From: Lytechinus pictus
Taxonomy: Eukaryota
Assembly: GCF_037042905.1 (NCBI RefSeq)
Contig: NC_087251.1
Span: forward strand, 36,458,001 to 36,522,000
Direction of reading: 5' to 3'
Length of the DNA stretch: 64,000 nucleotides
The notes beneath the pieces were generated by a model. The model saw nothing but the letters and a program-made list of their open reading frames with translations, was not told where the DNA came from and searched no databases. Below are positions 88 through 50,037 of this stretch, one piece after another. The number at the start of each line of letters is the position of its first letter. The first letter of the stretch is position 1. A program made the position numbers and the translations under genes.

Positions 88-263
88 CTCTGAGGAGTGT
101 CCATGGTGAATACTTCTTGAATGGTGATTTCAGTATAGATCTTCCTCACTCCTTCAAAGCAGCCGGTACCACCATAGAGTACAGTAGAAAGGTTGGAGCA
201 CCGCAAGATAAACCGGAAGTCATTACATTCCTTGGACCTTTAGAAGAACCACTCTATGTTGTG
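88..263 (+). CDS. PAPLN: Papilin exon, ADAMTS spacer domain (LRSVHGEYFLNGDFSIDLPHSFKAAGTTIEY...FLGPLEEPLYVV)
   Basis: tttcag acceptor and gtgagt donor; GxYxLNG, AGT and GPLxEPL spacer motifs. Confidence 0.92.
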
Positions 264-1411
264 GTGAGTTGAAATTCTACTGCATTTCCATAGATTAACA
301 TGCGTACAAGCAAAGGTTCAGTCGATATTTTAATGAATTTGTTTAATTCTCACAAGATTTCTTATTTCATTCCATGAAATCATTTATTCAGTTAGTTTTC
401 GCTGATGTGGTTTACGGTACACCATGTGACACCATGTGGAGTGTTATAGAAACAGTGGATAGAAGAAGAGAAGAAATGGATAGGCGAGAAAGTGGAGATT
501 TGAGAGTAGAGTATTCTTTCTTGAAAGTAGTCCTGAACAGTCAGTCCGCAGCCCGTCCGAAAGTGCTCTATTTTATTCAGCGGTATGCATAGCCGTCCGT
601 GGTTATGCATACGTAATGAGCTGTGAAGACGAACTTTCCGATCGGTGTTTTTTGCTCTTAGAATCGTTTATTCCTCACAAAATTGGTCTTATTTTATAGA
701 TAAAACTTTGAAATTTCTGATCAGCTAAATAAAATGCACATTTAATGTATTTTGAAGACCGATATTTAGCTTAGAAAAAATGATTTTTTTCAAGAAATAT
801 ATGTGAATAAACAGAGCGCATTTTTGCACCGAAATTACACTTGCGTCAAATTGATATTATAATCAATATAAAGCGTAGACATTCTTCTTTACGACTGAAA
901 AAGAATTATGAAATTTCATGATGTAGCAAAGTCAGGAACCACAAAAAACCACGGCAATGTCCATCGCAAAATGATTGGAATTGCAGTAGAATTGCCGACG
1001 CGTTCTGATTGGTCAACAGCGGCGCACAGACTTGCAACATTTTATATAGCTTAAAAAACCCGAAGGAAGTATGGAAGAGATTGATGGCGAATTGCGTAAG
1101 CGCATTGTTTTGGCGTGTGCAAGGACCCTGGTTCGAACCCGCCGGACTGTTTTTTTTTTTTTTTTTTTTTTTGGGGGGGGGGGGGTGATGGGGATATGTT
1201 TATGCTTTTTCTTTAAATCATATTCCTTCATCGTTCCTACCCAGCTTTATTCTCTTTTTACTTTCATGTGAAGTTCTATTTAGGCCTGCATTTATTAAAT
1301 CATGGAGCTATTAATAGCTCTATGATTAATTCTTACTTCTTCTTAATCACTGCTTTTGATTTTCAAGTTCTTGATTACACTTATTTGGGCAGGGGTGGGA
1401 AGGGAAGTGAG

Positions 1412-1953
1412 TTAAAGGTCAAGTGCACATCAACAAAAAATTATTTGAATAAATACAGAAATTTCCCTTTTTTAACACAAAACAGTTATATACACAAAAC
1501 AATGGTATGCAAATAGAGTTGATTATGTCACTCACATCACATTACTTTTTAAATTTTTGTTGCATTTTTATTATATAAATTTTAGCAAATTTGATCTAAA
1601 AAATCTTCCTCGAATCACAATAGGTTACATTTATGGAAACTACGAATGTTAATGGAGGAATTAAAATCCCTCTCAAAATTTGTTAATGAAAATTAAAATA
1701 AAATATACATGTCATGTACATGTATCAAACAAAAAAATACACAAGAAATTAGAGTGCTTGTGACATAATCGAGTCTGTAATTTGCACATTGACCAAGATG
1801 AGCATATAATTGTTTTATAAAATTAGGCAAATTTCTCAATGTCAAAATAGTATTTTTTTTAATTTTGAATCATAGTTTTTATGAAATTTTCTGCAATACT
1901 TTATTTTTCTTTAAATTCAAATTAATTTTTTGGTGGGGTGGACTTCTCCTTTA
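1412..1953. mobile_element. TTAA-flanked (Kolobok-like) non-autonomous element
   Basis: ttaaaggtcaagtgcac ... gtggacttctccttta; similar elements at ~17528-17925 and ~38522-38974. Confidence 0.55.
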
Positions 1954-4009
1954 CTCTTTGCTTGGAATAGGGAATGCACATTAATATTTATCCACGAACG
2001 AAATTGTCTAAACATATGCAAATCCGTAATTGGACACATGCTCACTTTCCTTTCATCCAGGCCACTCCCTCACATCCACCAGGTTTACAGTCTTATAACA
2101 AAAATGATGAATTAATTATAATACCATCACACCATAGCTCCATGATCACACAACATTCATACAGTGCTTCACAACAAATATTTCACTTCTGTTCATATAT
2201 GCAATAATTACTGTGGAAAACAAAAACAAGGCGTAACCACATTCAAATACCGTTTAAAAGGACAAATATATTATACCTTCGAAAAAAAAAATGTGAACAT
2301 ACATGGCACTTAACCTTCAGCACATTAGATAACATATAACAGAGTTGCTTGAGAACAAAATATGATTATGGGGCATTGCAAGAAACTTATGTTCAATTTC
2401 AATTGCAAATCAACTACATGTTTGTGTTTAATCAAAGGACTTACCCTTAATTTTGGAATGTGTGATTGAGTAGAAAGTTTCTTGCAATGCACTATTAGTA
2501 ACATTAAAAATGTCCTTTGGTTTTGAATTGTGAATTTTTATTTTTGTCAAGCTGTATTCCTGTCCAAGTCAGTATTCTTAGTCCTCCCCAAAACTGTGCT
2601 CTAATTTTTTTGTTTCCAATATCGATAAAGATAAATTTTCTGTTGTATCAGTCCAAAATTTGCAAACGAAATAAGGGCTTTGTCGAAATCATGGTCTGAC
2701 CATTATAGTACATGATGGACTCTCCCAGAATGAAGTAGCAAGCAGAGACCAGAGTCAGCAAGTATGCAGATCTGTGTGTAGAAGAGACAAAAAAGAGAGA
2801 AATAGTCTAAATTACTAAATAACCATTCAAAGTATGAATTATGTTACATGTACGTCAATTAAGAGACTAACTAAGTTAAGTCTAAGTACTGTCTGTGACA
2901 GCCACAATTTTTTTATTTGAACAAAATGGTCTATAAATACTACTGACTACTGCGTACGGTAGTACCAGACTTTTTAGTTTGACTTTAAACTGTTTATAGT
3001 CTCTAGAGTAGACTGTCTGAGCTAATCATCATTTAATTCTTAACCGCAGCCTGGGCTGGGGCAAAAATCATCATGGGGCTCAACTTCGACTAATTAAGAA
3101 AAAAGGTTAACAATTTTCGACATAAATCAAGAAATATCTCAATCTATAATAAAAACTTGATGGAATTCGGAAACCTGATAATCATTGAATAAAACTTTAG
3201 AAGGGATCTACTTATTAAGCTTCGTTTATATTGAGTCTTAATTTAAAAAAAACAAGTCCACCGTCCACACAGACACATATAATGCGAGCCATCTGCCATC
3301 ATTACAGAAGTTTCAACGTATGGGACCAAAGGCGAAATTCTACCAACCCGCGACGAACGTAATTTTGGCATTATTTCGCGCCATCGTGGAGTGAACGAGA
3401 AGGTTACTTCCGGGTAAAACGTAAATTTCTCGATTTTTAGGGTATCATTTTCTCTAAAATTAAAATATAAGGTGAGTTTGCGTCAAGTTGGTTCTGACAT
3501 ATTTTGAACAGTGACTTTTCTTCTTTCTAAAAAATCCTGATCGAAACAATTTGGTTATGTAGCAAAGTCAGGAACCAAAAGTGAAATTCCGACTACAAAA
3601 TCGCAGTTAAAATATTACTAAAATAAGCATCAATTAAAGAGGTAAAAATGGTAGGTTGAAAATGTCGAAATATGGAAAATTATATACCAAACTGTAGATG
3701 AAGGTCTTGAGAATAACTTACCACAATTCGTTTCGACGTAAACTGAAGTTAGCGACCAGTACAGAGCTATAACTTCAGCCCCTCCAATTCAGTGGGAAAA
3801 TCAAGCCAAATTGATTGCACGTTTTCATTCGGAGACCGCTAGAGGGCCGCTGAATAAATTTCCGTGAATATGCTCATTATCGCGCGAGCTGCGGTCTGAC
3901 TGTGAAAAGGACTGTAAACCAGGAAAGTTTGATGAGTTGAGAACAGCTTGAGTAATAGAGCTGAGATGCTGGCTTGAGTCGGCGAGTAGAGATGATGAGT
4001 ATTAGAGAG

Positions 4010-4050
4010 ACTCGACGTTTCGGACAGGTTGACTGTCCGTCTTCAGGAGT
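4010..4050 (-). ncRNA. Minimal type I hammerhead ribozyme (Penelope-like element/retrozyme type)
   Basis: Minus strand reads actc CTGAAGA c ggacag tcaac ctgtcc GAAA cg TC gagt: full core, 4-bp stem I, 6-bp stem II, palindromic mini stem III. Confidence 0.8.
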
Positions 4051-5349
4051 GAGTGTTCGCTCGGCGTGCGGCGGTACTTGTGGCGTGCGTGCGGACGTGG
4101 GGGAAAGCGCTGGGCCGGCGGTCACGGCAGGCTGACGTCGTAGGTGGTGCTCTGTGTGTGGGTCGGCGGTTTTGGCGGGAAACGTCAGTTAGTTTTGTTT
4201 TATCAGGGTGGCTCTTTCAGCCAAATGTTGTTTACCCAAGAGGCCCACAAACAAAATACAGAAAAGTAGGACAAACTTAAAGATCCATATGAAGTCATAA
4301 ATCTAACCTTCATGCAATTTACTTTAATTGTGTGTAGAAGCTATCATTAAAATAATCTTATAAGTCTTTGTTTAACTTAAAAAGCTAATTACTGAGAATA
4401 AATTTGGGAAAGATGACAATGGTGCTGATGATTTGCACTTGACAGAACACCTGTTATGTGATATGAATTCATATAAACATTGAAAGAAAGGTTATCCTAT
4501 GATAAAGTTATGATAAGATAAAAAATATTTGTGTGTCAGGGGGTGGGCATTGGGAATACAGTGTATAAACAGAGTCAACTGGGAGCGAATATAAGTTATA
4601 ATTATAAATTATGAATATTTCAGAAATCTTGCTGAACATTTCATTCTCTATTCTTATTTTGTAATATCAATGGTAAAGATTTTAATCTTTATATCCTTTT
4701 GGAAAGAATTGCATTGTTGTACAAGATCTGCTTTGATGTTGAAAGTTAACAATTATTCTGAATAGATGTAGTTGTGGCCTTTTGATTAAAGCCCTTACTG
4801 CGTAGACAATAGAGGATAAGAAAAATCTTACAGCCTAGATGATGACTCTAGGGAGAATAAATAGCAGGATTTCAGTATTGTTGCGGCAACTTCAAAAAAC
4901 TAATGTTATCCTTTCCCATTGCCAAATGAAGGTTATTGTGAACAAAAGTAATGTTCAGTAGAGAATTTATGATTACAGAAAATAGGACCGATCGAGGGTC
5001 TAGATGGCAGTACAGGGTGGTTTGCCTTCAATGTTGGATGAAAGAAGAGCCCTTTATTATTGAGTTTGGCCAATTCGCTTTCAGTGGGTTACAGTATTTC
5101 AAAATTACTTTTGAATTATGCTTATCTAACAAAGCAATAAGCAACTTGTTCCCATAAAATAAAAAAAAATTGGCCACACTCTGTAATAAACTGCTCTGAT
5201 TGCATCCAACTTCGGAGGCAAACCACTGTAAACCGATTTCTAAACCGGTAATGTATGATTGCCCTAAGTAGTTTATTATGGTCTGCTTTGAGTTCAAGGC
5301 ATACAAAATTAGAAGGATGAGGCAATGTAAGGTACTGAGGGTTTATTTC

Positions 5350-5725
5350 TGATTCGTCCAATGCCGATTCGTCCAATTGCCTACTGGTCTACTATCATAT
5401 GGTCTACCATCAGTTCATCCACTATCCACATGGTCTCATTGCCAACTCACCATTTTGTCTGATAACCAGTTGGTCCAATAGCCATTTAGTTCATTTGGTC
5501 TAATTGGACTAAGTGTTAATTGTGCAAAATGAATGAAAATTAAATGGATATTAGACCAACTGGTTATAAGACGAAATGGTCATAGACGAAATGGTGATTA
5601 GACGAAGTGATTGGACCAAATGGTTTGTAGACGAACTGTTGATGGACGGAATGGCATTAGACTAAATGAAAGTAGACCATGTGGTGAGTGGACAAGTTGG
5701 CAGTAGACGAATTGGCAGTTTACCA
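5350..5725. repeat. Inverted-arm element of short agacgaaatgg/tagaccaa subrepeats
   Basis: Left arm ttcgtccaa/ggtcta, right arm tagacgaa/tagaccaa; relatives at ~16800-18035 (interrupted) and ~24275-24650. Confidence 0.65.
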
Positions 5726-5921
5726 ATGCTGAGCATGCCCCAAACTTTACTAACCTTGCCTGACATATCAAGTGTTTGTGATGACAATGTGGATTTTCCC
5801 CGAGTAACATTGTCACAAGGATTGTGATTAGGCAGTGTGCAGGTAATGCTTGCAAAAACTCTGTGAATGGCACTGCTCCTCTCTACCTCTTGAAAGAACC
5901 GAGCCATTATCAATAGGTCTT

Positions 5922-6134
5922 TGTTTCACAAAGAGTGAAGTGTGACTTAGAGTCATTCTTAAATGCCGATGCATACCTACGTAACATGCAATCTTATTGA
6001 CTAATAAGGAGAAGCGTGCGTCCTCTAGTTAAGATTTGACCAATCGACGATGCGTTTTATACCCGCACACAACTGGGAATTTACATGAGACTCATACATG
6101 TAAGTCACACCTAAATCTTTGTGAAACACTCCCC
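5922..6134. mobile_element. MITE of the ggggtgtttcacaaag family
   Basis: tgtttcacaaaga ... tctttgtgaaaca TIRs. Confidence 0.75.
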
Positions 6135-9100
6135 AGATTATTATGACGTAAGTTACATAGCAGTCCGCTAGCAAACATGCAAATGGAAAAGTCAGTATTT
6201 TTCAAAGACCTATACTGTTAACCTTGGATCCAACAATGGAGTTTTCATCACTTGTTTGGGGATGGTTGAAAGAACTGCTAACCAACAAATGATGTGTTAG
6301 GAAACGGTTCTATTTAAGGACCTTCTCCTCCTCTTACACCATTGCTTTCACACTCTCGTAATCCATCGGCTTTGTACCTTGCTTCCTCTGCCTGGAGTAG
6401 CAGATCTCTTAAAGGTTCCATTTCAAGAAAACAGGTTGTATGAAGTAGCAGATCTCTTTCAGGTTCATGTTGAAGGGAAAAATACTGTAAATCGACATGT
6501 TTTTCTTTTCTTTCGCTTCAAGTTCATATTCACAATCTTATAAAAATACAGAAACACAGATAAATAGCAGAAACACCCACTAAAAGGATAGAAACAATTG
6601 GAAAAAGAAATACTTATAAAGTAGTATTAAAAATCATTCAAAATGCTTTCAAAATAAAGTCAAGAGTACAACAGAATCATAATACAAGAATGAGAGGAGA
6701 TATCAAATGAGTCACATTGCAATATATTTGAAACATGATAATGGTAAACTAAAATTAGTAAATGTTCACTTAAAGTCTATTTGATGAATAGAATTGCATA
6801 GTCATATTTTGTATCATGATTATCAATTGCTGGTATTGAATCTAATTTCATAAATCTACAAATCATAAATATATCGCAAGTTGATAAAAGAAACGCATTA
6901 TTAACTCAAGTTTTTTGTGGAGCTACTTTATGGATTTCTAAGTAGTATATGACAAAATATATAATTCATTGCGTGTTGTGTCATCGTATTAAGCTGATTC
7001 AAGATTCTTTTAATCCATATCACTATTTGGAAAAATGAAAACTTATATGTAGGCCTATTTGATGTATTGCCAATGCTCTGTGTGCATGCATCTAATTCTT
7101 AATCCTGGAGGAGTGAATTAAGTATGATCGATGAATCAAATACTTCACTCCTACAAAATAAAACACACAAACACCCCCACCCTGTCACGCTAATTTGCAC
7201 ATTTTTTTTTTATATTAGTACTACTCTAACATAATTATTTCTGTCTTATTGGACTAAAAACAATTGAAAATTACCTACATTTATTTTACATATAACTAAC
7301 TTATGAAGCAATGACCACTGATATGAATTCCCTTTCCATGATTTACCCTTGTTTTGTCAATGAAAAGACTTTACTACATTAAAAAAAATTTTGGAGTTCA
7401 TTCAAATCTATGGCATTTTCCGCTAACCACAATCCGGGCCAGAAGTTAATGGCATAATTACCTGTGCAGACATTAAGTGGTATTTATTGGCTTCCCACTG
7501 ATCTAGTTCCTAAATTAACAGTAGATGCCATGACCAATATCAACTACAAATTTGACATTCTGGTGTTATATTTTGTTACTTATTCCAGTCAAAAGTTTAT
7601 GTTAATGGGTTTTCCCTATATTGTTATATATTTTCCATGAGAATAGACTGAGTATGGTTACCTATTTATAGATGCAAGAGTCATGAAATTGACTCTAAAA
7701 GTGTGATCTTCTTACTGGAAAGAGAGAAGTTTTTCATACTCTGATGTTGTATAAAAAAAATGAGAATCTGAGATTTCTTTGTAACATTCCTATGGAATAG
7801 TTTACTCTTAATTTCTAGTGATTTCAATAAATCCAGAGTGGCTGTCGGTGAATAGTGTCCAACCAAATATTGGATCTTGAGTCCCAGGGACCTATTTTTA
7901 GATTTCAAAGGATTTGAATTCAAATCAGCAATGTTAAAAAACATATCTAAGGGTCGGCTTGGTCAATGTTCACAGCAGCTGTGGATTAATTTTAAATCCT
8001 TGTCAATTAGAGTGTAATAATTCTGTAGGATTTACATGTACCTTAATTAGTGCTAAGCAGAAACTATGGCATATAAAGCATTAATCCATTAATAATAAAT
8101 TTTGTAGGGAACTTTGCATTGCATTACCATGAAGAAGGCCTTATCAATTTCTTGTGTCTGTTATCTAAAATGAAACCTGGGTAAAAGTTTTATCAGACCT
8201 TGATTAAGTAAGATGCATTGTCATCATCTAGCTAGACTAGCTCAGATAAGTAAAGTATTGTAGAGTTTCCTCACTTGTCATCATGTCGCTTCCATTGCCA
8301 TGGTAACATGATATTACAGGTGAAAGATCGTTCATGTCTTCTCTAATACCTCCAGGTTCCAGAATGATCCCAATGTGATATCCTTTAAACCTTTCTCTAT
8401 TTTTACCTTTGCGATATTCTAATATTTTCAGAAATCATTTCTATTGTTCTTTTGCAATCATGGTTAAAGTGATGTTTACCAGATCTTTGTTTTTTATGAT
8501 TTAAAGTAATTATAAAATACAATGAAATCAGTACATAAATATAAATATTAAAAAAATAACCTTCATTCCCTTCACCAATCAAGACATACAAATCACAATT
8601 GCATAAAGTTATATAGGATATGAATTTAATCGATTCATGTTTTTTTATAAAAAATGAAAATGCCTCTCTATAAGTAGTTGAAGTTGTCCAATTGACATAC
8701 AATTTATAAAGACAGTCACCTTTACCTTGAAAAATTATCATCAATTATCAATCCTTCAACAAAAAGTAGAGAGAGAAAGATAAACAACTTCTGGCTAAAA
8801 AGATGGCAGACGTAGTGCTTGAGATAGTTGCCATTGCAGATTCAAGATTTAGATCTACATGGCCAGACAAGCAGACATTTTAAGGATTAAATATCTTGTT
8901 GGTAGACACCCTGGTATCAGCATCTCAGTATCATCTAATCCCAGATGAGTGATGTTTTCATGGTTAACTATCTCCACATCCAATCTAGTCTATTACTTGA
9001 TGAAAGAAGGGTCTCATCTGGACTGGATCGTAGTTCAGTGTACCTGAACTCATCATGTTGTAGTTTTTAATTATGTTTTGTTATGAATTATAAAGAGCAT

Positions 9101-9459
9101 TTCATAGAACATATAGTTAGAGTTTCTCACTGACAGCTGTTATAAGCTACTGAATCCTTGCATCTGATTGGCTCAGAGCACATTTTTGTGAAGATCACTG
9201 ACAAGACTCTTCATGAAATGTACCAGTTTTAGGTTGGGATAGTTGGTTAAAATCTAAATAGTCATTAGCCATTATCTATCAATCTTTTTTTTAAAGGAGA
9301 TTATTCAGCCGTCAAATTCACTCACGAAAATTGTTTCTTGAAAAAAATTGTCCTAGTTTCATTTTTAAAATAATTTAGGAAATTGATATAGTATTATTGA
9401 TAGAAGTACAGCAGTGTAAGTAGAGCTAGGTTGTAGTAGTAGAAGTAGTAGTAGTAGTA

Positions 9460-9502
<43 letters not shown>

Positions 9503-9519
9503 CGGTGATGGTGGTATTA

Positions 9520-10166
9520 CACTCTAAAAACACCTCAAATGTTTTCCCAACCTTTTCAAATTGTTTATACCCAACCTTTCAGCGGAATCCAACATTCAAG
9601 TGTTGGGTCGAACTATTTAAAGGGGTAAATGCAACATTAAGAGGCTGTTCTCACTACGTTCCTAAAACTAGTTTACTGGGAACCGGTTCAGAAAGCCAGT
9701 TTGGAAGATTGCTTTGCTAGCGTTCTCACTTGATCACACGAAAGTGGTTTTCAAAATCACTTCACGTATAGCGCTCTTGTTGCTATGGAAACGCTCTCAG
9801 TGGGGAGACACGTTTCGCGCGAAATTCGAAACCGCAGCATAGGCATTCTACACCTGTCGTGTGGAGTAGCGCGCTCAAAATGTGCGAAGATCGCTTCCCG
9901 AGGAACGGTTGTGTCCTCACTTACGCTAAAACCACTTTTCCGATGCGAAGCGATCTTGAAAACTACATCGCGAGGTGGTCTTCCAAACTGGTTTGGAAGA
10001 GCGCTTCCAAGAGCGCTTCGACCGTTCTCACTTAGCGTTAAACTAGTTTCCACTAAACTAGTTTCCACTAAACTAGTTTAAGGAACTGAGTGAGAACAGC
10101 CTCTAAGACAAGGTTGTGATTCCTCCATGCTTTCAAATGTTGATTGAACATTTCATTTTTAGAGGG
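9520..10166. mobile_element. Older MITE (CACTCTAAAAA TIR, TA flanks) hosting the 9641-10103 element
   Basis: ta-cactctaaaaa ... tttttagaggg-ta. Confidence 0.7.
9641..10103. mobile_element. PIF/Harbinger-type MITE
   Basis: TIR gaggctgttctcact...agtgagaacagcctc; TAA target-site duplication on both sides. Confidence 0.88.
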
Positions 10167-10168
10167 TA

Positions 10169-10238
<70 letters not shown>

Positions 10239-10255
10239 AAGTAGTAGCAGTAGTA
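10167..10255. repeat. (GTA)n microsatellite; its other half is at ~9434-9500
   Basis: Directly visible. Confidence 0.95.
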
Positions 10256-13200
10256 AATGTACAAGTAGATGCAAATCTCGATTTAGAAGCAGTAGTTCAG
10301 TTGAAGTAGAAGTTGAAAGAGAGCTAGAAGTAGTACCAGTTATGATGTATTACTTCTGTCCTTCAATTTTGTTAAGTATCATTACTGTCAATGCATTTTT
10401 ATTCCGATGTGATGGTCAAGAGATTCAAACCATGTAAGAATAGATACTCATCGTTTCTCATTGATTCCCTATGTCATGATTGCTAAGATGCGTGTCTCCA
10501 TCAAGGCAGACATCCCTGCAGTGCATAATCCCTGATGAAAGCCTCTTCCATGGTGACCAAAATCCTGTACATTCCCAACAAATATTAGTGATGTGTTGTA
10601 TGTTTAGCTCTATCCTTGTGTGTGACATTCAACATTTAATCTGAAGTGAGTTATTAGAGGGGTGTATATTGAAAAAAAATACCAAGAGATTTTTCAAATG
10701 AAAATATTTGGATTTGAAGATCCACTTGTAAGACAAGAAGGTATTCTCAATATTATGTTTTGTTTTATGAGTTTGTATTTGGTGATTATTTTCATTTTAT
10801 TAAGGAGATATTTTCAGGGATTTTATAGTCAGTAATAATGGATAAATGAAATGCCATTTTTTTGTATGGCAATGCATGAGGGAAATCTCCCTTTATATTC
10901 TATTGTTTGTTTGTTTTATTTCCGTCATAAAAAAATACATAACAATATATATACATGTAAAGAGATACAAGAAGTAACATATACATACATAATGAAATAA
11001 ATTCTAAACATTGATTTTAAAAAAGAAAAGAAAAAATTAATGATTGAAAACATGTTAAGAAAGTTAAAAGATCAAACTTAAGACAAAAGACTGCTGGATA
11101 ACCCATATTCAGCTGCACACCAATTATATGTGCGGCTGGTCTTCCATGGGGACCAAATAAAAGAGAGAGAGAGAGTCATAGGGAGAGGAACATGAGAACA
11201 GGAAAAAAAGACAAAAGAGGGAAAGGAAGGAAGAAAGAAAAGAAAAGGTAGACAAAAGAAAGAAAGAAGGAAAGGAGAAAAAAAATCACTATCAGTTTAT
11301 CACTATCATGATTTAGTGTGTTTTGTCCTCTTTCACTTTGCAATATAATGCTAAGAAATGTTAATTGATGACATTAATTGTACATTTGGGATGATGGGGG
11401 ATGTGGGTCATTTGTATGTAACATAAATCTCTGCTTAGAATACAGTTAGAAATGTCCCTACTCTGTAAAACAGAATACAATTTCTGGTCAGAGATGGGGA
11501 GGGGGTGTATAATACTGCAAGGGGCTCCTCAGTTTTGCCTGATGTAAACATTGAGTGTTTGGAAGTTGTTATCACTGGTAATGCCATCATTGGCACACAC
11601 ATGTCTAGGCTGTCATGTTACCTCGTTCTTGACACGGGAGATCGTTGGTGGGAATTGACAAGTCCTCTATAACATTCATTCAATCATGTCCGCGCACAAT
11701 CTTCCCACATACCCGAATGGAGCGTTGATGGAGGAGTTATTCAATTACTCTTGATGTCTTCTTGGAACGTTTATGTCGGGTAAAGGGTTACAAATTGATG
11801 CACTAACATCTTCAAATTCAATATAAGAAATGTCTTCCTGTATACAAGCATAACAAAGCACCGTGGAGGAGTTATTCAATTATGACCACAGTCATACCAA
11901 GGTAAGCAACTTCAGACTGAACAAAGCTGTTATATTATTTTGAATCGCACTTGATCAGGCGGTTTGGAGTCTGTTCTTTATGGTTACTATAGTGTTGCAT
12001 TATTCTTCATGTCTACTTAAAAATACAGGTAGTATAGAAGAAGAAGCAGGTGCATAAGATAATTAAAGAAAAGTACATGAACCTGGATGCTATAAGTTCA
12101 TATTCATGGTGTTCAGATTTAGTTTGGGGAAGAAACTATGCATTCTTCATACCACCCACATTTATAAGATAAAGAGAAACTGTTGATAATTGAGTCTCAG
12201 AATATGTTTTTTTTTTTGTGAAAAAAAAAAAATAGGTTGGTGGCGGGGTCATTGCAGATAGAAGATTAACTTTTATTCCAGGGGATTCTGAAAAACGGGG
12301 GAGGGGGAGTTGGGATGAGGAAGAGCTTTCGGTACTCCCCCCCCCCTCCCAACATAAAAATGTGCATTGGGAGAGGGGGGGTTTGGCTGGGTTGGGATGA
12401 GGAGGAGCTTTCGGTACTCCCCCCCTCCCAACATAAAAATGTGCATGGAGAGAGGGGAGGGGGGTGCCAAAAGCACCTCCTCATCCCAACCCACCCCTCT
12501 CCCCATGCACATTTTTATGTTTGATGCTCATGGACAATAGCAATATGTTAACAAATTAAAGAAAATGTCACATGTTTTGGGAGTCTGTTCTCCCAGTTCC
12601 ATTTTAGAAGTCTTCCGTGCCACCTGCATTTTCTTTAAAAAATCTAGGATAGTCCCTAATCATTGAAATAATTGTGCAATTTCAATTTTTTTATTTTTTA
12701 AACCGAAACCCCCCCCCCCCCATACAATAGAATAACACACACACCAACAAAAAAAAATCTGTGACCCACTCTAAAAGCTGAAGCATGGGAACTGTCTTCA
12801 GTTAAAAAGGGAACCACATGCCCTGGACTTACCAAATACCCCTAAATACTTATCTTTGTTCATACTAGTAAAGACCTGTAGAAGGTGGAAAAAAAGGTTT
12901 CATACTGGAGCTAGCATGTTAAATGTGCAAGGTAGCCGAGATTTGACCTTGTTTTTCGCACCTTTATTCCTATGAAGCGTTTTGTACAGTTCCAGCCTAA
13001 AAGTGCAAGCCAACAATTTCATGTTCTCATTCAAACTACATATAAGTTGATTTCAATATCTAATAGAATTAGGTTACCCTCTCACACAACCTGAAAGTGC
13101 TCCCTGTTCGAACGTTGAGAGTTGTTTATCTGCCAGTACCCTGAGATGTAGGCTGCAAATGAATTGACTTGAATGTGTGTTATCATGACCATTATATCAT

Positions 13201-13534
13201 TAAATTGCCTCTCGTGTTACATGTACTTTTCTTTCAATGTGTAAGGCTTGGGGTTAGTATGTAGGACAAAAAAAAATCAGTCTGTTCATTTTATATGGAA
13301 CTATGGACAGGGTTCCTTTACCTGGGATGTTCTGTGGAGTGTTTCATTGGAACATATTTCACAACTAATGTTGTTTTGGGCATATCACATGCATGGAGTT
13401 CAGGAGCCTTTTACAGTTGTCAGTTAAAGTCACAGACTATTTCTTCATGAAATGATCCCCTGTTCTGTTCATAACACAAAATCCCTGCAAATTTTTTTAA
13501 AATCCAGATTGATAATACATTACCTGCTGGAAAG

Positions 13535-14215
13535 AGCACTGTGCCACACAGTGGGTTCACAGTGTGTTCACATAATGGATTATGTGAAAATGTGATCCAC
13601 ACTTTTAAAATAGCCAAATTTACAGTGTGGAGTTAATTTGATACTGTTTTGACCTCTGATGTATGAATTTTCACCATGTGTCTTAAAAGCATGTTCACAT
13701 AGTGGACTATGTGAACATACATGTATGATCCACACTGTTAAAATGCTCAAATGTTACTGTGAAAATAGCATCACACTGGACACCTCTACAGTTTGAGTGT
13801 TCCCACAGTGTTCACATATTGGACTCCATGAATATGCCATTCCTGCTGTTAAAATGCTCAAATTTAACACAGTGTGGACACTCTACTGTGTGAGTGTTCA
13901 CAGTGAGTTCACATATTGGACATAGGGGACTATGGGAAAATTCTATTCACTACATTAGAGTGCTCATGTTAACAGTGTGATAATGATTTACACTGTTAAT
14001 ATTGTTCAAATTTAACATTGTAAAGATAATTTCACACCCTGGACACCTCCACAGTGTGAGTGTACATAGTGTGTTCACATTGTAGATCATGTGCAGATGT
14101 GATTTACACTTAAAATGCTCAAATGTAATAGTGTGATTTTACACCATGTTCCACACTCTAAACACACTGTGGGACCCTCAAACAGAAACTGTGGGACATT
14201 GTTCTTTCCAGTGTG
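13535..14215. repeat. CAGTGTG-rich repeat element
   Basis: Repeated tgttcacatagtggact...aaatgctcaaat units. Confidence 0.7.
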
Positions 14216-16895
14216 GTTATATCATGTACCAGTATTTTAGACTGGGGTGAAACTGAAATATTTTACTGCAGTCACACCGACAAAACTGACTCCCAACCGA
14301 ACAATGATATACCATTTAAAATAGCTCAATAGCTTTAATCTATCTAGTCTGTTTTGTTGGTAATGTTTTAGCATGAAGTTTTGCAGTAGGGTGAATGAGT
14401 AGAATTGGAAGTTTTTTCTTCTATTTCATTAAGGAAAAAAAGGGTTGAGGTGGGGGTGGCGAGTTTGTATCAGACTTGACCTGCACTTCCGATGGCTTTG
14501 TCTTCTGGCTGATAGCGACAAGATGAGGATAGGTCCCGGTGATATTATCAAGCAGCTGTACATGCCAGACGCTTAGACTAGTGCCAAGGGACTTCATACT
14601 ATATCATCCTAGCTGGTAGGCTTCTTCATGAAACTTTTGAAAGGACAGTGCTCTTGACCAGGAATACTTTCAAGAGCCTTTTCTATTCAATTTTTATGTG
14701 ACAGATATCCCTTTGTAACAGAATCGGATTGGTCCACTGCTTTTGCAGCCAAGTGACAGATCTATAAAAAAATATATATATACTATATTTTCTCTTTTTA
14801 CATGTACACTAAACAAATTGCAGTGTTCCAATGTGTATCATCCAAACAAGAAAAAAGGTCACTATGATTAAAAAAAAAAAACATGGAGCTAGCTCCATAA
14901 AAATACTAAGCATTTTGTTCATTTGGCTATTTCATTTTTCATCTAGCTTTTTAAAATCATAATCATATAATAAGTAGGCAGACAGTCATCAATCTGATTT
15001 TGACAGTGTTTGAGTTTTGAGATGTGTTTTGAAAGTTGCTTTGTTATTGAAAAATTATTGCATGTAACAACAAAGTTTGCAGGCAGATCTTAAATGAAAA
15101 TAGTCTAAAATAAAATGTACTGGTATGTCTTACACATTGACCTATTTCACCATTTCATGAAACTAAAAATATTTCATGTTGATTTTGGAAAGGAGAATGA
15201 ATCCTACCAAAGCATTTAGTTGTTGGGGAAAACAAATACTCATTCAACAGAAGGGTCTGTAATTTGAGACTATGAAAATTTCCACTCTGTCCATAGCACC
15301 TGTCAGTCAATCTGTGCTATTTACTACCACTGGAATGTGGCAAAGCAGTGAGCGCAATCATGGTAATACCAACTTCTAACCAATCATGTGAAGTGACAGA
15401 AAGAAAGAAATATGTGTATAGTCTTCTTCATCAGACCCTTTTTTTACTTACTTTCCACTTTGATAAAAATATATAATTTCAAAAAGATTTGATGCTATCA
15501 ATCAACAATGCTTGGCCCATTTATCATTTTTCACTCCAAAATTTTGACATAAAATACCCAAATTTAATTTATTTGAATCATAGTTGTGTCTGTCTACCAA
15601 ATTTGTAAAATTTTGCTTGCTAAAATTATCAAATGTTCATGCTTATTACTATGTAAGCTATTAGCTTTATGCGAGTCAAAATATAGTCAAACAAATGAAT
15701 ACCTGAGAATATAGGAAAGAAAATACAGCACAATGATTTTTTTTTCAAAATGACTTTATAGTATGCAGTTATGATGTTCATTTTTGCTAGTAATTACATG
15801 ATTGAGAATTATGAGTAAAGGAGAAAAAAAATGATACCACTGTAAACAAAAGAATTTTTCTTTAAAACCTATCACACTGCACGTGTTTAGATCCCATTTC
15901 ACACAGAAGCCATGAAAGTATCACATTTAGGATAAAAGGATGATTGATTATGACAAGAATCCATGAATTTGACAGATATGACACTCTAGAGTAAGCAAGT
16001 CTGGCCTTAAAATAGAAAGGTCACTCTTATAAAAAGATAGTAACAGTCCACATTCATACAGTTATTTTGTAATAGTGAGGTAGAAAACATTACACGTGTA
16101 CGTCATGTTTAGTTTTTGTGAAAATCTGATTATGTTGGATATTCCATCTGGTTCTTTGTGACAAGAGGTTGGCGTCTCTAATGTGTGCCTACATGAATTC
16201 AAGTGATGATAAGATTTATCCATCTAACAATGACTTCCAATTTAAAAAAAATAAATGATCTTTATATTCACCAAATATTTTTATTGGATTCAGGTAGGAG
16301 GAATTTTTTTTCCATTGCGAAAATGAAGTTGAAAACTATACATGGAAGAATAGACAGTCAAATTGATAAACAGCTGGCAATTTTAGAATAGTAATGCAAT
16401 GTAGTAATGTAAACTTCAGAACGGTTACATTTAAAGAGAGATCAATGTTTCAACAGGACATTGGTTAACATCTATCCGACTTCATACACGTAAAAGCAGA
16501 ACCCACTATAATTTTATATTCTTCTAAAAACTTACAAATATGTTTTTCGTCCGTCGCAAGCATTTCAGTCCGTTGCCCAAACTTTCATTATCATTGTTTG
16601 GCAAATGTTTGTAAGATGGAATTTCATCTGAGTATGTGGGTGAAAATGCTGCTGTTGATGTTCTGAAAGATGAGAGGGGGTGGAATATATTTGATCTTCT
16701 TGATGACATAAGAGGGCCTGAGATGGAGAAGTTTGTAGGACAGCAATCCATAGACAGGAACATGAAATGAGTGAACAAAGTTGTGATGTTATAGAATATG
16801 ACATTGGTCTAACAAAATACAGTTTATATTCACTTTGTCTATAAGCAGTTGGTCTGATTTTCAGATAGTGTTATACCACATGGCCTAAACCCATT

Positions 16896-17330
16896 GGCCC
16901 GAATTCACAAAGGTGGTTTTGAAAACCCACGGTTGAATCCATGGTTTATGCAGATTTCCTGTATAAATTACGCTTAATTTATCACGTATTGGGCGCGTGT
17001 ATAAAAAATGTCCAATGCTGATGCGCGCTTTTGTCACAGTGCGCCAAATTGACGCCTGTTACCGTGGTTATCCACGCTATTTTATTCATGAGTCCACTGT
17101 TTTTATTCATGAGTCCACTCGTCGAACAGTGGACTCCTGAATAAAATAGCGTATCTAACCATGGTAACAGGCGTCAGTTTGGCGCACTGTGCCAAAAGCT
17201 CGCATCAGCATTGGACATTTTTTATACACACGCCCGATACGCGCTAAATTAAGTGTAATTTATACAGGAAATCTGCATAAACCATGGATTCAACCGTGGG
17301 TTTTCAAAACCACCTTTGTGAATTTGGGCC
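16896..17330. mobile_element. Fold-back MITE (near-perfect ~435-bp palindrome)
   Basis: ggcccgaattcacaaaggtggttttgaaaacccacgg... is mirrored over ~200 bp; second copy at 48777-49322. Confidence 0.92.
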
Positions 17331-18238
17331 ATTTTGTCTAATAGTCTCATAAACAGGTGGTCTAATTTCCACTTCATCTAATTCTTAATTTTTACTTTGT
17401 CAAAAAATGGTTCATAAACTGTTTTCATCTAGTTATAAAGACTAAGTTGTGTTAGACCAAGTAGATATTAGACAAAGTGGGTATGTCCTAACTAAGAATG
17501 AGATAAAATGGTAAATGGGCTTAAATGTTAAAGACAGTAGTTTGCAGCAAACAATTATTTTATGAGAAAGTCTTTTAAATCAAGGTTAATTGTCCAAATA
17601 TTTTCATACATCTAGATCTGGTGCATTCATGTAAACTTGTCTTTTTAAAAATCATGAAATTTTAGCTCAACATCGATAATTCTGATGATCATTAACATAG
17701 GAAAGCATATGTGGAAATGTGTACTAATATCGCTTCGAAAAATATACCGACATTTGATGGAATCCCTTGCTTATTTTGCTCATTTCTCAGCAATTACGCA
17801 TTTTCTTCCAGAGCTAGATTTGGCACATAATTTTCATTTATACATACAAACACTTTGGTGGTTATTTCATTGGATTCTGTTCAAACTCATTTTGAGATCG
17901 TTACCACAAATGGTATTTATCTTTAATCGCAATTAGACCAAATGGTAAGTAGATGAACTGGTTGTAAATGAACTTGGATGAGATCAAACAGAAAGTATAG
18001 ATAAAATGGCCATAGACCAAGTAGCAATCTAACCAACAGACTACGCCCACTTAGTGATTTCTACCATTTAATGTATTTGATTCCAAATAAGTCTTGTACG
18101 AAACTTGTATTTGTGTTTGACGATGTAAGCTCTGAAAAAGTCCAAACTGTTTTAAATTGTTTATTTTTCACTTTCACACTGATCCATGCTTTTTATATTT
18201 TTACTTTTGTTTTCATATACTTTCAATCTTATTTTCAG

Positions 18239-18371
18239 TTGCTGACCCAGGGTAGGAACCATGGAATTGAATACTCTTACTACGTTCCAAATGGAGTAGG
18301 TCCAGATGAACCAGATTCCTATTCCTGGACCTATACCCCTTATTCTGACTGCTCCAGAGAATGCGGAGGGG
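18239..18371 (+). CDS. PAPLN: Papilin exon, spacer end and start of TSP1 (LLTQGRNHGIEYSY...WTYTPYSDCSRECGG)
   Basis: ttttcag/gtaagt; phase 0 matches the previous exon across a ~18 kb intron. Confidence 0.93.
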
Positions 18372-20161
18372 GTAAGTTCTTATTCCTTCTCTCCAGTGTT
18401 GTAGCTAGATCATTTTATATGCTGGGCAAAATGTAAACAGCAAAGCATAACAAGCAAAGTGTACCGAGTGAAGCGCTCACCCCTTATTGCCAGGGGGGTC
18501 CAAGGTTTTAGGACTTCTAGAGATACTACAATCGTCAAATTGAGGGGTAAGTTTTGTAATTTTTCAAATGGCCCCATTGAGCTATTTTTCCCCAACTTTT
18601 TCAAGCAATTTAGAGGGAATTTGTGCCGGATAGCGACATTTTTTTTTACTACCAGTGCTGGGTGCAAATTAATAGCATGGGCTGGCCTGCCTGGCGTAGC
18701 CAAGCATAGCTTCAAAACTGCTTCTCTTTATTACATACTTTATTGACTCTACCCACATATACATGTAGTGAACCTGAATTATGAAAAAATTTGCATTATA
18801 TGATGAAATATACTTGTTTGAATGCCACATAAAGAAGCATAAAGTATAAACATGTAAAGAAAAAAGTATGTTTAATCAATTAATCAAATGAAAATGAATC
18901 TGGGCGGTATCAACCCATGATAGGGATATGAACAATCTTGCAAAATGCCAAATAGCTTTAAATTTAGGTTCATTGCCATTACAGAGCTGAAAATAGCTAG
19001 AGTCAAATATAACACATATGTATTATTAAATCTATTACAAAGTTGTGAAATGTTAAATGTCATGCATAACCAACAGAATTGAAGAAAAGAGGAATTGAGC
19101 TTTAATAATAGTGATCTTGTCCGAGTTGAGTAAAAATAAAGAAGCGAAAAGAGCAATTCTTGTATGAGAGGCAAGCCACTGGGACTTTCAATTAAAAAGT
19201 TTAATGATTTAAGAATCCCATTAAGAACAATACAAAGTAGAAAGCTAAATGACTCTTTAGAAAAGTTTTAATTGAAATAATAGCAGTTAAAATAACTAAC
19301 TTGAATTACAAAACACAATTCTGAATAATGAAATGGTAATAAGATCAGAAACCAGCTAGGAAAATTTTTCACTCAGGAGACTCAACTCCGAATATCTTTG
19401 CATCTTCTTGGCATTGAACTGCTGGTTTTATGAAGCCGATGACAGAGCTTTATTTTCGTTTAATGAGGAGTTGGTCATTTTATTCTCCCACCTGTGTTTT
19501 CTTTAGTAAACCGAGACCAGTCCTACCACTATGGTGGCACCCTACATCCAGGTGCGATGAAAAATTGACATGATGAGTCCAGAGAGGGTAGTTAGGTGGG
19601 CATTTTCTCCCATGACAGTTGCTCCTCCCTTGATTTCTGTGAACATGTAAGATGGGGGATGGGGTTGTCATAGGGTTTTTGGTTCAAAATAATGTAAGGA
19701 TTAGGATTTAGGTTTGAAGTTAGGATTAATGTCTAATGTGTAGCTATTTAGGAGAAACAAATGTCATGGACCCCCTAGATAGGGATGGATGCATGCTTCC
19801 TGGGTCTATATATTTTGGCAGAAGATATTGGGGGAAAGGGAGATTGATTGATTTTTACAGAGGTGTGCCATTGAAACTGTCAAAACTTTTCTCTATTTGG
19901 GGGGGGGGGGCATATAGGGGGGGGGGGAGCCATTTTCAGTTGCTTCAGTGATGACATTGGTGAAATATCTATCCTGGATGGAAAAATTACAAATGACAAA
20001 AATTTTATCTTATTTTTAGGGTAATGTCAAACCGAACCCATCCTCTTACCTTTATGCTTAAACAATACCGCAAGCAATATTTCTTCAATATTTTTTCAAA
20101 AAAAGTCACTGATAAGTAGCTCAACCCATATTTACTGATACTGTGTGAGATGACACCAACT

Positions 20162-20415
20162 GGTGTGTTGGCTCAGTTGGTAGAGCGTCTGTCTCACAAC
20201 CGGGAGGTCGGGGGTTCAAACCCCGGCCGCTTCAGACCAAAAGACGTTAAAAGATGGGAGTTGCTGCTACCCTGTTTGGCATTCAACAATTAAAGGGATA
20301 GAGCCTCGTTGATCTGGTGCTGCACAGCGGCTGCCGGGCCCATGATCAATTGGGCAAAACAAATTTTTGGATTATATCATTTCTGGTCTCTATTTCGAAC
20401 AATAAAAAATATGGA
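20162..20415 (+). mobile_element. tRNA-derived SINE
   Basis: A box TGGCTCAGTTGG, B box GGTTCAAACC, tRNA-Val(CAC)-like arms with a non-pairing acceptor stem, ~180 nt body and A-rich end. Confidence 0.85.
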
Positions 20416-21324
20416 TCTTTTTTTAAAGATGGATGAATAACAATCTCTGCCCCTTTGAATATATGAAATATGAATGAAGCTGTCTCAGATCATGACTAAA
20501 AGTCCAAAATTCTTCAATGATTCTTTTGTATTAAAAAAAATTCTGATTGATACCAGTAAATGAAATGAAGAAGCAAAAGCTGTTACCTTTTACTTCAAAG
20601 AAGCAAATGATTGAAATCTATTAAAAGCTCAACGTTGTTCTTTACTTTGGATTTATCTGCCCCTCTAATACCAATGACATCGACTCCAAACTGACCAATG
20701 GCATGTCACATGTAATAACATAATAGTTCTTGTCAGCCTGGAGTCAAATTTCCAGTGTGACTGTAGTATATAAGATTAGTAATAAAATATATTTTGTGTA
20801 CAAGTTTTCTCTGTATGAGGTTAAAAATACAGCTATGAAATAAAAATGGAAAATTTCTTCCCACAACCACCATCCTTGGTTGTAGACGTGTTTACAAGGA
20901 TTCACCCTTCTTTTTTTAAGCAGACTCCTTGTGAGTAGCTTAAGACCTCAGGTGTGTTACACTTATCCCATAGGCATATCCACCTTAATGGGCATTTGAT
21001 CTCCCGTAAACTTGAAGAGATTTATAGAGGTTATAGGTCAAATACTACCCAGGTTCCCCAGTGGCCCAATGGTAGACTCTCATGTCTGATGAAAGGCAAG
21101 TTGCCGAGGACAATGTTCTGAGCAGTTTAAAAAAGCACTTTCCTGTTTCTTTCTGATTTTTTTTTATTGACAAGTATGATTTTCTTTCAGTGATGAAGGC
21201 AGACAAAGTAACAAAAAATATGTGTTTGCCTCCATTTTGATTCTTCTCAGCTATTTGAACCATCTATCTACACTTTTTGTGAAATAGCACCCCAAAAATG
21301 GAATATATTTCACTACTATTCTTC

Positions 21325-48754: not shown

Positions 48755-48776
48755 GTGGGTAAAGGCCAATCTCCAT

Positions 48777-49322
48777 GGCCCAAATTTACAAAGGTGGTTT
48801 TGAAAACCCACGGTTGAGTCCATGGTTTATGCAGATTTCCTGTATAAATTACGCTTATTTTACCGTGTATATTAAATAATGGCAAAAAGAAGCTGCTGAA
48901 AACTGCTTATCTAATAAAAGAGAGCCAATGGAGTAAATTAGAAAGTCAAAAGGGGCCTAAGCTTTCGATCCTAGCAGAATCTTCGTCGGAGGCAAAATAA
49001 TGTCTAATGCTGATGCGCGCTATTGTCACAATGCGCCAAATTGACGCCTTTGCCATGGTTAAGTACGCTAATTTATTCATGAGTCCACTGTTTTGAATTA
49101 ACGAGTCCACCCTTCAAACAGTGGACTCATGAATAAAATAGCGTATCTAACCCATGGTAACAGGCGTCAATTTGGCGCACTGTGACAAAAGCGCGCATCA
49201 GCATTGGAATTTTTTATACACGCGCCATATACGCGCTAAATTAAGCGTAACTTATACAGGAAATCTGCATAAACCATGGATTCAACCGTGGGTTTTCAAG
49301 ACCACCTTTGTGAATTCGGGCC
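48777..49322. mobile_element. Second copy of the fold-back MITE, interrupted at ~48873-48997
   Basis: Near-identical to 16896-17330 apart from the insert. Confidence 0.9.
48955..48993 (-). ncRNA. Minimal hammerhead ribozyme variant (core CCGACGA) in a ~125-bp insert
   Basis: Minus strand reads gcct CCGACGA a gattc tgcta ggatc GAAA gc TT aggc; U4-to-C change in the core. Confidence 0.6.
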
Positions 49323-50037
49323 ATATGTTTTCTCAGGCTATATACAGTCTCACCAAGGGAACTGACTCCATACTGACTGATTATAAGCCATTTGAAATAG
49401 CTTTGACTAGTCTGGGTTGGTTTTGTTGGTGTACCTGTTGTATTAGAAATAAGCAATATTGCAGGATCTCTTCTTGAATTGAAATGAATTGGTTTATATA
49501 AAAACAACATAAAACAGGCAACCCGAAGGTTGAAAATGTTCAGTTTACAAACATAAATCAAGAAATAATGTAATTATCCAAAGTTAGACACAATTCATGA
49601 ATCAAGTGTAGTTTTACAAATTATTTCAATGCTAATAAAATGAAAGTTACTCCTGATAAAAGATTTTTTTACAATAAATGGATAATTCATCAGTTTTCCA
49701 CTATCATTTTTGATTTATTAGAAAAATATAGAAATAGAGTGAATTAGATAATCAGAGAAATAGCAAAAATATGAATGGTCTGTTAAAGCAAACACAAATT
49801 ATGTGATTGGTTTAATAAACAGAATATAAATGGAATAAGAATTTATAGAATATTTCAATTTGAGTGAATTAAGAACATGCTCATCAAATAAAAAGTTTTG
49901 AAAAAGCTGTATTCTGATTATTGGGTCAACCAGTGATAAGGGTGAAAGAGACAAAGTTGAGACTAATATGAAAACAAAGATTGCACATAACACTTGTATT
50001 GCTTATTCCCCCCCCCCCTCCCACTTTTTGCCTTCAG

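Follow-up and report, generated by a model that had tools for sequence, protein, structure and literature searches.

A minimal hammerhead motif antisense in a papilin-like intron lies in a split, probably Penelope-type insert of a very abundant family

Introduction

A minimal hammerhead motif inside a long intron raises the question of what kind of element carried it there, and whether it can act at its present position. The stretch of DNA analysed here (64 kb, hereafter the window) holds one such motif, which an earlier note, made from the letters alone, had read as a young Penelope or retrozyme remnant. The family described below bears on what the hammerheads of Penelope-like elements (PLEs) are for. 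Motifs of this type occur by the thousands in animal genomes, so that the locus itself carries little weight alone.

Results and Discussion

Host gene and orientation

The motif lies antisense within an intron of a plus-strand gene (264-18238; 17,975 bp, GT-AG), in agreement with the placement in a papilin intron of ~18 kb given in the earlier note. The host exons are ADAMTS-spacer-like, TSP1-like and Kunitz-like, and judged by eye the gene appears to be papilin. The hammerhead is unable to cut papilin pre-mRNA because it is antisense to the gene. The exons that border the intron are as follows.

88..263, plus strand: host exon that precedes the intron, ADAMTS-spacer-like and by eye papilin
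18239..18371, plus strand: host exon downstream of the intron, with the end of the spacer and the start of TSP1

The hammerhead motif

Window 4050-4010 on the minus strand encodes a minimal type I hammerhead with all core bases present, and each part that had been named before (core, stem I, 6-bp stem II, ACGU and GUC site) was found at its position. The parts are listed here in the order of the RNA.

4010..4050, minus strand: minimal type I hammerhead, core sequence, with features as in the accessible part of PMC4209133
4050-4047, minus strand: stem I, 5' arm, 4 bp
4046-4040, minus strand: C3-A9
4039, minus strand: extra C after A9
4038-4033/4027-4022, minus strand: stem II, six Watson-Crick pairs, G10.1-C11.1
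4032-4028, minus strand: loop of stem II
4021-4018, minus strand: G12-A15.1
4017-4016, minus strand: CG between A15.1 and U16.1
4015-4014, minus strand: U16.1-C17, GUC site
4013-4010, minus strand: stem I, 3' arm

The predicted cut falls at 4014/4013, which is also where the earlier note had put it (between plus-strand 4013 and 4014), and A15.1-C-G-U16.1 forms the palindrome ACGU that replaces stem III. The motif has the core CUGANGA...GAAA...UH with stems I and II, as well as the features of the PLE type, namely an extra base after A9, G10.1-C11.1 and a palindromic 15.2-16.2. A hammerhead descriptor applied to both strands of the 64-kb window gave this single match, and 200 block-wise dinucleotide shuffles of the window gave two loose matches and no strict ones. 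The hammerhead models proposed earlier as a check did not recover the motif: an Rfam search of the window reported it neither at the gathering score nor at E ≤ 10.

In metazoan PLE motifs, as characterized in the accessible part of Cervera and De la Pena (2014; PMC4209133), helix I is short and helix II long, A9 is followed by an extra base, and G10.1-C11.1 and a palindromic 15.2-16.2 are present; the motifs number thousands per genome, mostly as single copies that are regarded as truncated PLEs. The window motif is the same in being type I, with a 4-bp stem I, a long stem II, an unpaired base after A9, G10.1-C11.1 and a palindromic 15.2-16.2. It differs from the Schistosoma PLE hammerheads of that paper, in which stem II has 7-8 bp rather than 6 bp.

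Cleavage potential at the locus

In the lowest-energy fold of the monomer the extra C pairs with G12 and stem III is absent. The fold has a z of -1.76, with equal or better folding in 14 of 200 shuffles; the signal of the motif is its core sequence, not the stability of its fold. Two copies of the motif co-fold via ACGU, a duplex worth only -3.1 kcal/mol, and neither a second hammerhead nor any other dimer partner was found within the 64-kb window. In the accessible part of PMC4209133, a single minimal hammerhead did not cleave and dimers cleaved weakly, while the hammerhead of an Anolis PLE cut only in the presence of the element's protein (PMC11167929). As a monomer, the window hammerhead is predicted to be inactive, and cleavage at the locus would need either a second motif in trans, through an ACGU dimer, or the protein of the element. 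The lone motif, the need for protein and the lack of a nearby partner speak against the earlier suggestion that antisense transcripts could cleave themselves here, and the hammerhead of the window copy is probably inert.

The motif lies in an insert split by a DNA transposon

Boundaries were mapped by placing contigs of four public sequencing runs on window 3200-4800. The insert comprises 416 bp in two minus-strand pieces (4184-3907 and 537-400), in which a CpG-rich segment of 134 bp is followed by the ribozyme and a tail of ~240 bp. Its parts and surroundings, from the 5' end of the element, are listed below.

4185..4196, unstranded: target-site duplication, right copy, 12 bp exact
4051..4184, minus strand: 5' part of the insert, 134 bp, 69% GC, CpG observed/expected 1.4 against 0.45 for the window
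3907..4009, minus strand: first half of the element tail, deeply covered by contigs and with indels and loose ends of the family
538..3902, unstranded: non-coding DNA transposon in the tail, 3,365 bp, with terminal inverted repeats and a TGAA duplication
400..537, minus strand: second half of the element tail, displaced by the DNA transposon, with a family loose end and the target-site duplication
388..399, unstranded: target-site duplication, left copy, 12 bp exact

The 12-bp repeat is the longest exact repeat between both flanks, and 0.7% of random window pairs reach this length. At the right boundary a family contig terminates at 4184 and a single-copy flank contig begins at 4189, which is 4 nt short of the branch expected for an empty allele. 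The 3' end of the insert is placed at 400 from the target duplication only; a family loose end left of 3903 is identical to window 504-533 at 28 of 30 letters (compared by eye). The GC-rich block at ~3903-4240 described earlier does contain part of the insert, but the insert ends at 4184, 4197-4240 is flank (43% GC), and the element continues at 537-400. Two further candidates were set aside: a 33-bp match tried as flanking repeat, whose shared piece lies inside the DNA transposon (3548-3580 with 912-944), and a GGCT...AGCC hairpin at 4210-4222, which is flank, is altered in run X1 and was taken as chance.

The DNA transposon has 15-bp terminal inverted repeats (14/15 matching) with CAGT...ACTG ends, is flanked by a 4-bp TGAA duplication at 534-537 and 3903-3906, and lacks any ORF of ≥100 aa within 538-3902. 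A 2-bp duplication with termini one base longer also fits; a multi-copy contig that terminates at 3902, the right end of the transposon, favours 4 bp. This right end has ~20-fold flank depth in run X1, and a contig 99% alike to the transposon is present in a run labelled as a second organism.

The perfect 12-bp duplication is in keeping with the earlier description of the remnant as young, but the copy predates the transposon inside it. Between the listed contigs and the window copy the divergence is ~2-10%, and the single-copy flank shows 24 differences in ~410 letters; because the contig divergence resembles that of the single-copy flank, the window copy can be dated only as older than the transposon. 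The earlier note had found the hammerhead block, but neither the left part of the insert nor its nesting, nor the histone-like signal described below.

Identity of the element

The insert combines the marks by which PLEs are recognized, a hammerhead-bearing terminal repeat, 5' truncation and a target duplication, and we consider it likely that this duplication-flanked, transposon-split sequence is the 3' end (pseudo-LTR) of a 5'-truncated PLE, with the hammerhead silent here. Its 5' part (4051-4184) is likely the 3' UTR/promoter part of the pseudo-LTR; contig depth over it is ~4-5% of that over the ribozyme.

Searching the window by tblastn with two PLE proteins gave no match to RT or GIY-YIG sequence, as would be expected of a truncated copy. 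There were no matches to a 103-aa frame by phmmer or in word-based searches for an RT or GIY-YIG of the family; protein searches of four readings of the insert returned nothing, and Pfam was empty for the two that were scanned. The Penelope RT/GIY-YIG ORF to which the earlier note sought a link was not found for the window family by tblastn, phmmer or word searches. Its reading of the locus as a Penelope remnant is supported in so far as a PLE-type minimal hammerhead sits in the remnant of a multi-copy retroelement. The family likely belongs to the coding PLEs, and we infer its PLE origin from these features. The window locus itself is probably an ordinary PLE-type remnant, a known kind of element, and inert.

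Abundance of the family and the ends of its copies

The insert belongs to a very abundant family; a search for further copies had been called for in the earlier note. Depth in run X1 was ~84 on the right single-copy flank against ~550,000 summed over the ribozyme (order of magnitude). By region, contig depth, which does not equal copy number, was 1,100-1,700 over 3200-3850, 17,000-21,000 over 4064-4171 and 285,000-570,000 over 3956-4063. With the bin 4010-4063 corrected for its final 11 bases, the ratio of ribozyme to downstream depth was 0.96 in both DNA runs (X1, X2), and that of upstream to ribozyme depth was 0.039 (X1) and 0.051 (X2), a value that would also be lowered if the upstream parts of subfamilies had diverged to <80% identity.

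The best-supported loose ends, at 4045, 4049, 4050 and 4052 (11-17 contigs each, with 178 further ones), are AT-rich. Their agreement is 0.43-0.47 as against 0.41-0.44 for unrelated flanks, with three of the four inside the 95% range and 4052 (0.47) above it. Copies of the family thus contain the entire ribozyme, and most of them end at its 5' edge and not at the cut site. Three contigs lead from 4044-4049 back into the tail, and an opposite-strand joint occurs in the family at 4046 (2 contigs); the window copy has no partial tandems and no inverted 5' copy. It carries TCACTC at 4052-4047, which we take to be initiator-like, and no clear TATA box near the ribozyme 5' edge. Behind 4050, nearly the same AT-rich loose end is seen in runs X12 (organism A) and X18 (organism B), so that both likely carry one orthologous insertion of the family.

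A model for the copying of the family

Genomic copy ends are a record of RNA templates. Those of the family point to an uncleaved template that starts at the ribozyme, and against a model in which cleavage defines the copied unit. We propose that a PLE protein would nick AT-rich DNA and begin reverse transcription at an internal position of the RNA, within the tail that follows the ribozyme, as the Anolis element does. The template would be mostly uncleaved, so that copies retain the entire ribozyme, and most copies would end 0-6 nt upstream of the core since the RNA would start there. A transcript from the 5' repeat would carry the tail twice, and priming on the first tail would give a short run-off cDNA, often with a head-to-head inversion. 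The window copy may represent the minority that reaches 134 nt further, through priming in the 3' repeat followed by truncation. Both priming routes would require an uncleaved or re-ligated template, and a circular re-ligated template would likewise preserve the entire ribozyme. We infer a transcript start at the ribozyme 5' edge; the start need not sit at the ribozyme, because that of the D. virilis PLE lies farther upstream, 46 nt before an intron of 75 nt that extends up to helix I (accessible parts of PMC2377424 and PMC4209133).

Several of these steps have counterparts in known elements. Internal priming on an uncleaved template, with zero reads ending at the cut site, was reported for the Anolis PLE, whose ribozyme mutants insert normally (PMC11167929), and inverted 5' copies and 8-10-bp duplications are given as PLE traits in parts of PMC8557442 and PMC3846280. 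Poseidon PAc of Anolis carolinensis (Frangieh et al. 2024, PMC11167929) has the ribozyme just ahead of the tail, as does the window family, with the start of reverse transcription in the tail shown for PAc; it also resembles the family in its AT-rich targets and in the use of unprocessed RNA as substrate, presumed for the window family. The two differ in that the PAc ORF starts at stem II, whereas the window copy has ACG at the corresponding codon and its family has no ORF linked to it, and in the length of the 3' end behind the cut site (~245 nt in the window element, ~90 nt in PAc).

A histone-like signal in the tail

With the DNA transposon omitted, the tail contains a stem of 6 bp closed by a UUUC loop and followed, after 5 nt, by CAAGAAAGA.

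3907..3913, minus strand: histone-type stem-loop (interrupted by the DNA transposon), 5' arm with the first base of the loop
529..537, minus strand: histone-type stem-loop, remaining loop and 3' arm
515..523, minus strand: purine-rich 9-mer, separated from the stem-loop by 5 nt and resembling a histone downstream element

The intact window shows no histone stem-loop match because the TGAA target of the transposon forms part of the loop. The 9-mer, which we take to be identical to the sea-urchin histone downstream element, is retained in the loose ends that runs X2 and X12 show for the family, where neighbouring letters vary; no literature passage confirming that identity was found. In 20,000 shuffles of the element the stem-loop arose in 3 and the stem-loop with the purine core in none, and no histone-like hairpin was present in the tails of other families (0/109).

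The 6-bp stem, 4-nt loop and downstream purine-rich element are like those of histone mRNA 3' ends in the accessible parts of PMC7026596 and bioRxiv 10.64898/2026.10.14.759114; the latter gives as diagnostic a G-C at stem position 2 and a U at loop position 3, both of which the joined tail also has. Unlike the histone signal, the first pair of the window stem is A-U, its flanks are non-canonical, and it lies in a retroelement tail and is split in the window copy. It matches mouse H2a at only 10/16 letters against a metazoan mean of 14, and the spacer is short, with the purine core 9 nt behind the stem in the window tail and 16 nt in mouse H2a (PMC7026596, in the part available).

On the strength of these letters, the family might use the host's machinery for histone-mRNA ends, a possibility that we hold to be unlikely. 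A stem-loop of the SLBP type with a U7-pairing element, lying 100 nt behind a start-marking ribozyme, would then give a non-polyadenylated, histone-like RNA, whose unprocessed fraction would be copied into thousands of ribozyme-headed inserts; the signal would supply a 3' end for the element mRNA, or give an attenuated RNA of ~145 nt. If the stem-loop signal works, U7 and SLBP would process an RNA other than a histone mRNA, a class to which the accessible part of PMC5054213 describes their pathway as specific. No histone-like end signal in a retroelement and no 5'-edge copy pattern appeared in the literature titles and abstract openings surveyed; the accessible part of PMC4209133 likewise gives no account of copies beginning at the ribozyme edge or of a histone-like signal, both of which are features of the window family.

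The scales stand about level for a different explanation, namely that the signal is a by-product: the 9-mer would persist not for U7/SLBP but because it encodes Gln-Glu-Arg at the start of an ORF, or because it belongs to a hairpin bound by protein. Between the ribozyme and the 3' end one frame stays open over 91 codons, and the tail of the Anolis PLE is an ORF start (PMC11167929). Among the family changes in four loose ends, compared by eye, 3 are silent and 6 mostly conservative, and 4 of the 7 listed tail indels are multiples of 3. The departures from mouse H2a in stem-loop and spacer fit a by-product as well, as does the reach of the insert ~115 nt beyond the signal, which implies a template that was uncut there. 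Against a by-product, the frame lacks an ATG in the window copy, 3 of the 7 indels shift it, 3 silent changes in 9 are about what chance would give, the protein searches had no match, and the shuffles never reproduced stem-loop and purine core together. We consider the coding evidence for the 91-codon frame weak. A 50-nt pyrimidine tract followed by two ATGs lies near the 3' end of the element (430-500, minus strand) and resembles an intron end ahead of an ORF start, though the window copy lacks an AG there.

Other explanations for the insert

The bulk of the family depth begins at the ribozyme, and an ORF link was not found for the family, as might be expected of an independent non-autonomous SINE-like element (ribozyme plus ~240-nt tail) that makes short transcripts of its own and borrows a PLE enzyme in trans; non-autonomous pLTR-forming PLEs are known (PMC8557442, in part). 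We regard such an element as improbable here: a minority of copies, including that of the window, extends into the upstream CpG-rich segment, which fits a longer parent, and the insert is without a tRNA-type head.

Animal non-LTR retrozymes, as described in accessible parts of PMC7229834 and bioRxiv 10.64898/2026.07.22.740005, resemble the insert in being non-coding, 150-450 bp long (the insert has 416 bp), equipped with a type I hammerhead and probably PLE-mobilised; the bioRxiv paper proposes them as PLE derivatives, and the three contigs that lead back into the tail would also suit a retrozyme monomer producing circular RNA. This origin is very improbable, since retrozymes are tandem units with canonical ribozymes and circular RNA, whereas the insert is a single unit with a minimal motif, enclosed by a target duplication, and family copies do not start at the cut site. 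With no tandem unit and no second ribozyme in the 64 kb, the retrozyme half of the earlier proposal is not supported. That the host has co-opted the window copy to cut or terminate antisense RNA at papilin is scarcely credible, even though the core is intact and contigs from presumed RNA runs contain family sequence, since some of thousands of copies will be intact merely by age, the monomer is predicted inactive, those contigs differ from the window copy and are strandless, the tail was disrupted by a later insertion, and the right flank is uncovered in run X2 (not proof of absence).

Loci with the same core in other DNA

The PLE reading of the motif can be set beside loci with the same core in metagenome contigs, of which 108 were obtained (109 matches), with a total estimated at ~7,300 by extrapolation from 2/64 parts scanned. 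The strict stem count held for 30/109 matches. In two of the 109, the motif immediately follows an RT ORF on the same strand whose end looks GIY-YIG-like by eye, the RT being recognized by Pfam in one (L002; RVT_1, E 1.4e-10) and by BLAST to L002 in the other (L025; E 9e-17). The L002 ORF (234-1961, minus strand) is an uninterrupted RT plus GIY-YIG-like frame of 576 aa that ends 98 nt before the minimal hammerhead.

Among related pairs with enough flank, 241/283 have <20 nt in common upstream of C3, the pairs being non-independent and the loci chosen for an intact core and downstream likeness, which biases the upstream comparison. An inverted copy is present within 250 nt upstream in 34/101 matches and in 0/67 downstream controls (L023 counted twice). 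Nine loci (L018, L020, L023, L030, L045, L085, L096, L104 and L105) are short head-to-head palindromic inserts of two ribozyme-plus-tail units that meet near the ribozyme 5' edge; confusion with MITEs is possible.

A few long copies carry TATA-like and initiator-like words near the ribozyme 5' edge (by eye), as known from a rotifer pLTR (PMC3846280, in part). Across 99 related loci there was no excess of TATA-like motifs 30-50 nt upstream (2 matches), and Inr-like motifs showed modest clustering only. BLAST of the window element against the 108 loci matched the ribozyme alone; a family-specific pattern had 0 matches in metagenome contigs and a relaxed pattern 0 in viral contigs.

Other repeats in the window

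Window 20162-20234 (plus strand) has a tRNA-like head (Rfam, 31.2 bits; no ARAGORN gene) followed by non-tRNA sequence, likely a SINE. Two copies of a palindromic MITE-like element, ~87-91% alike, lie at 16895-17331 and 48775-49324.
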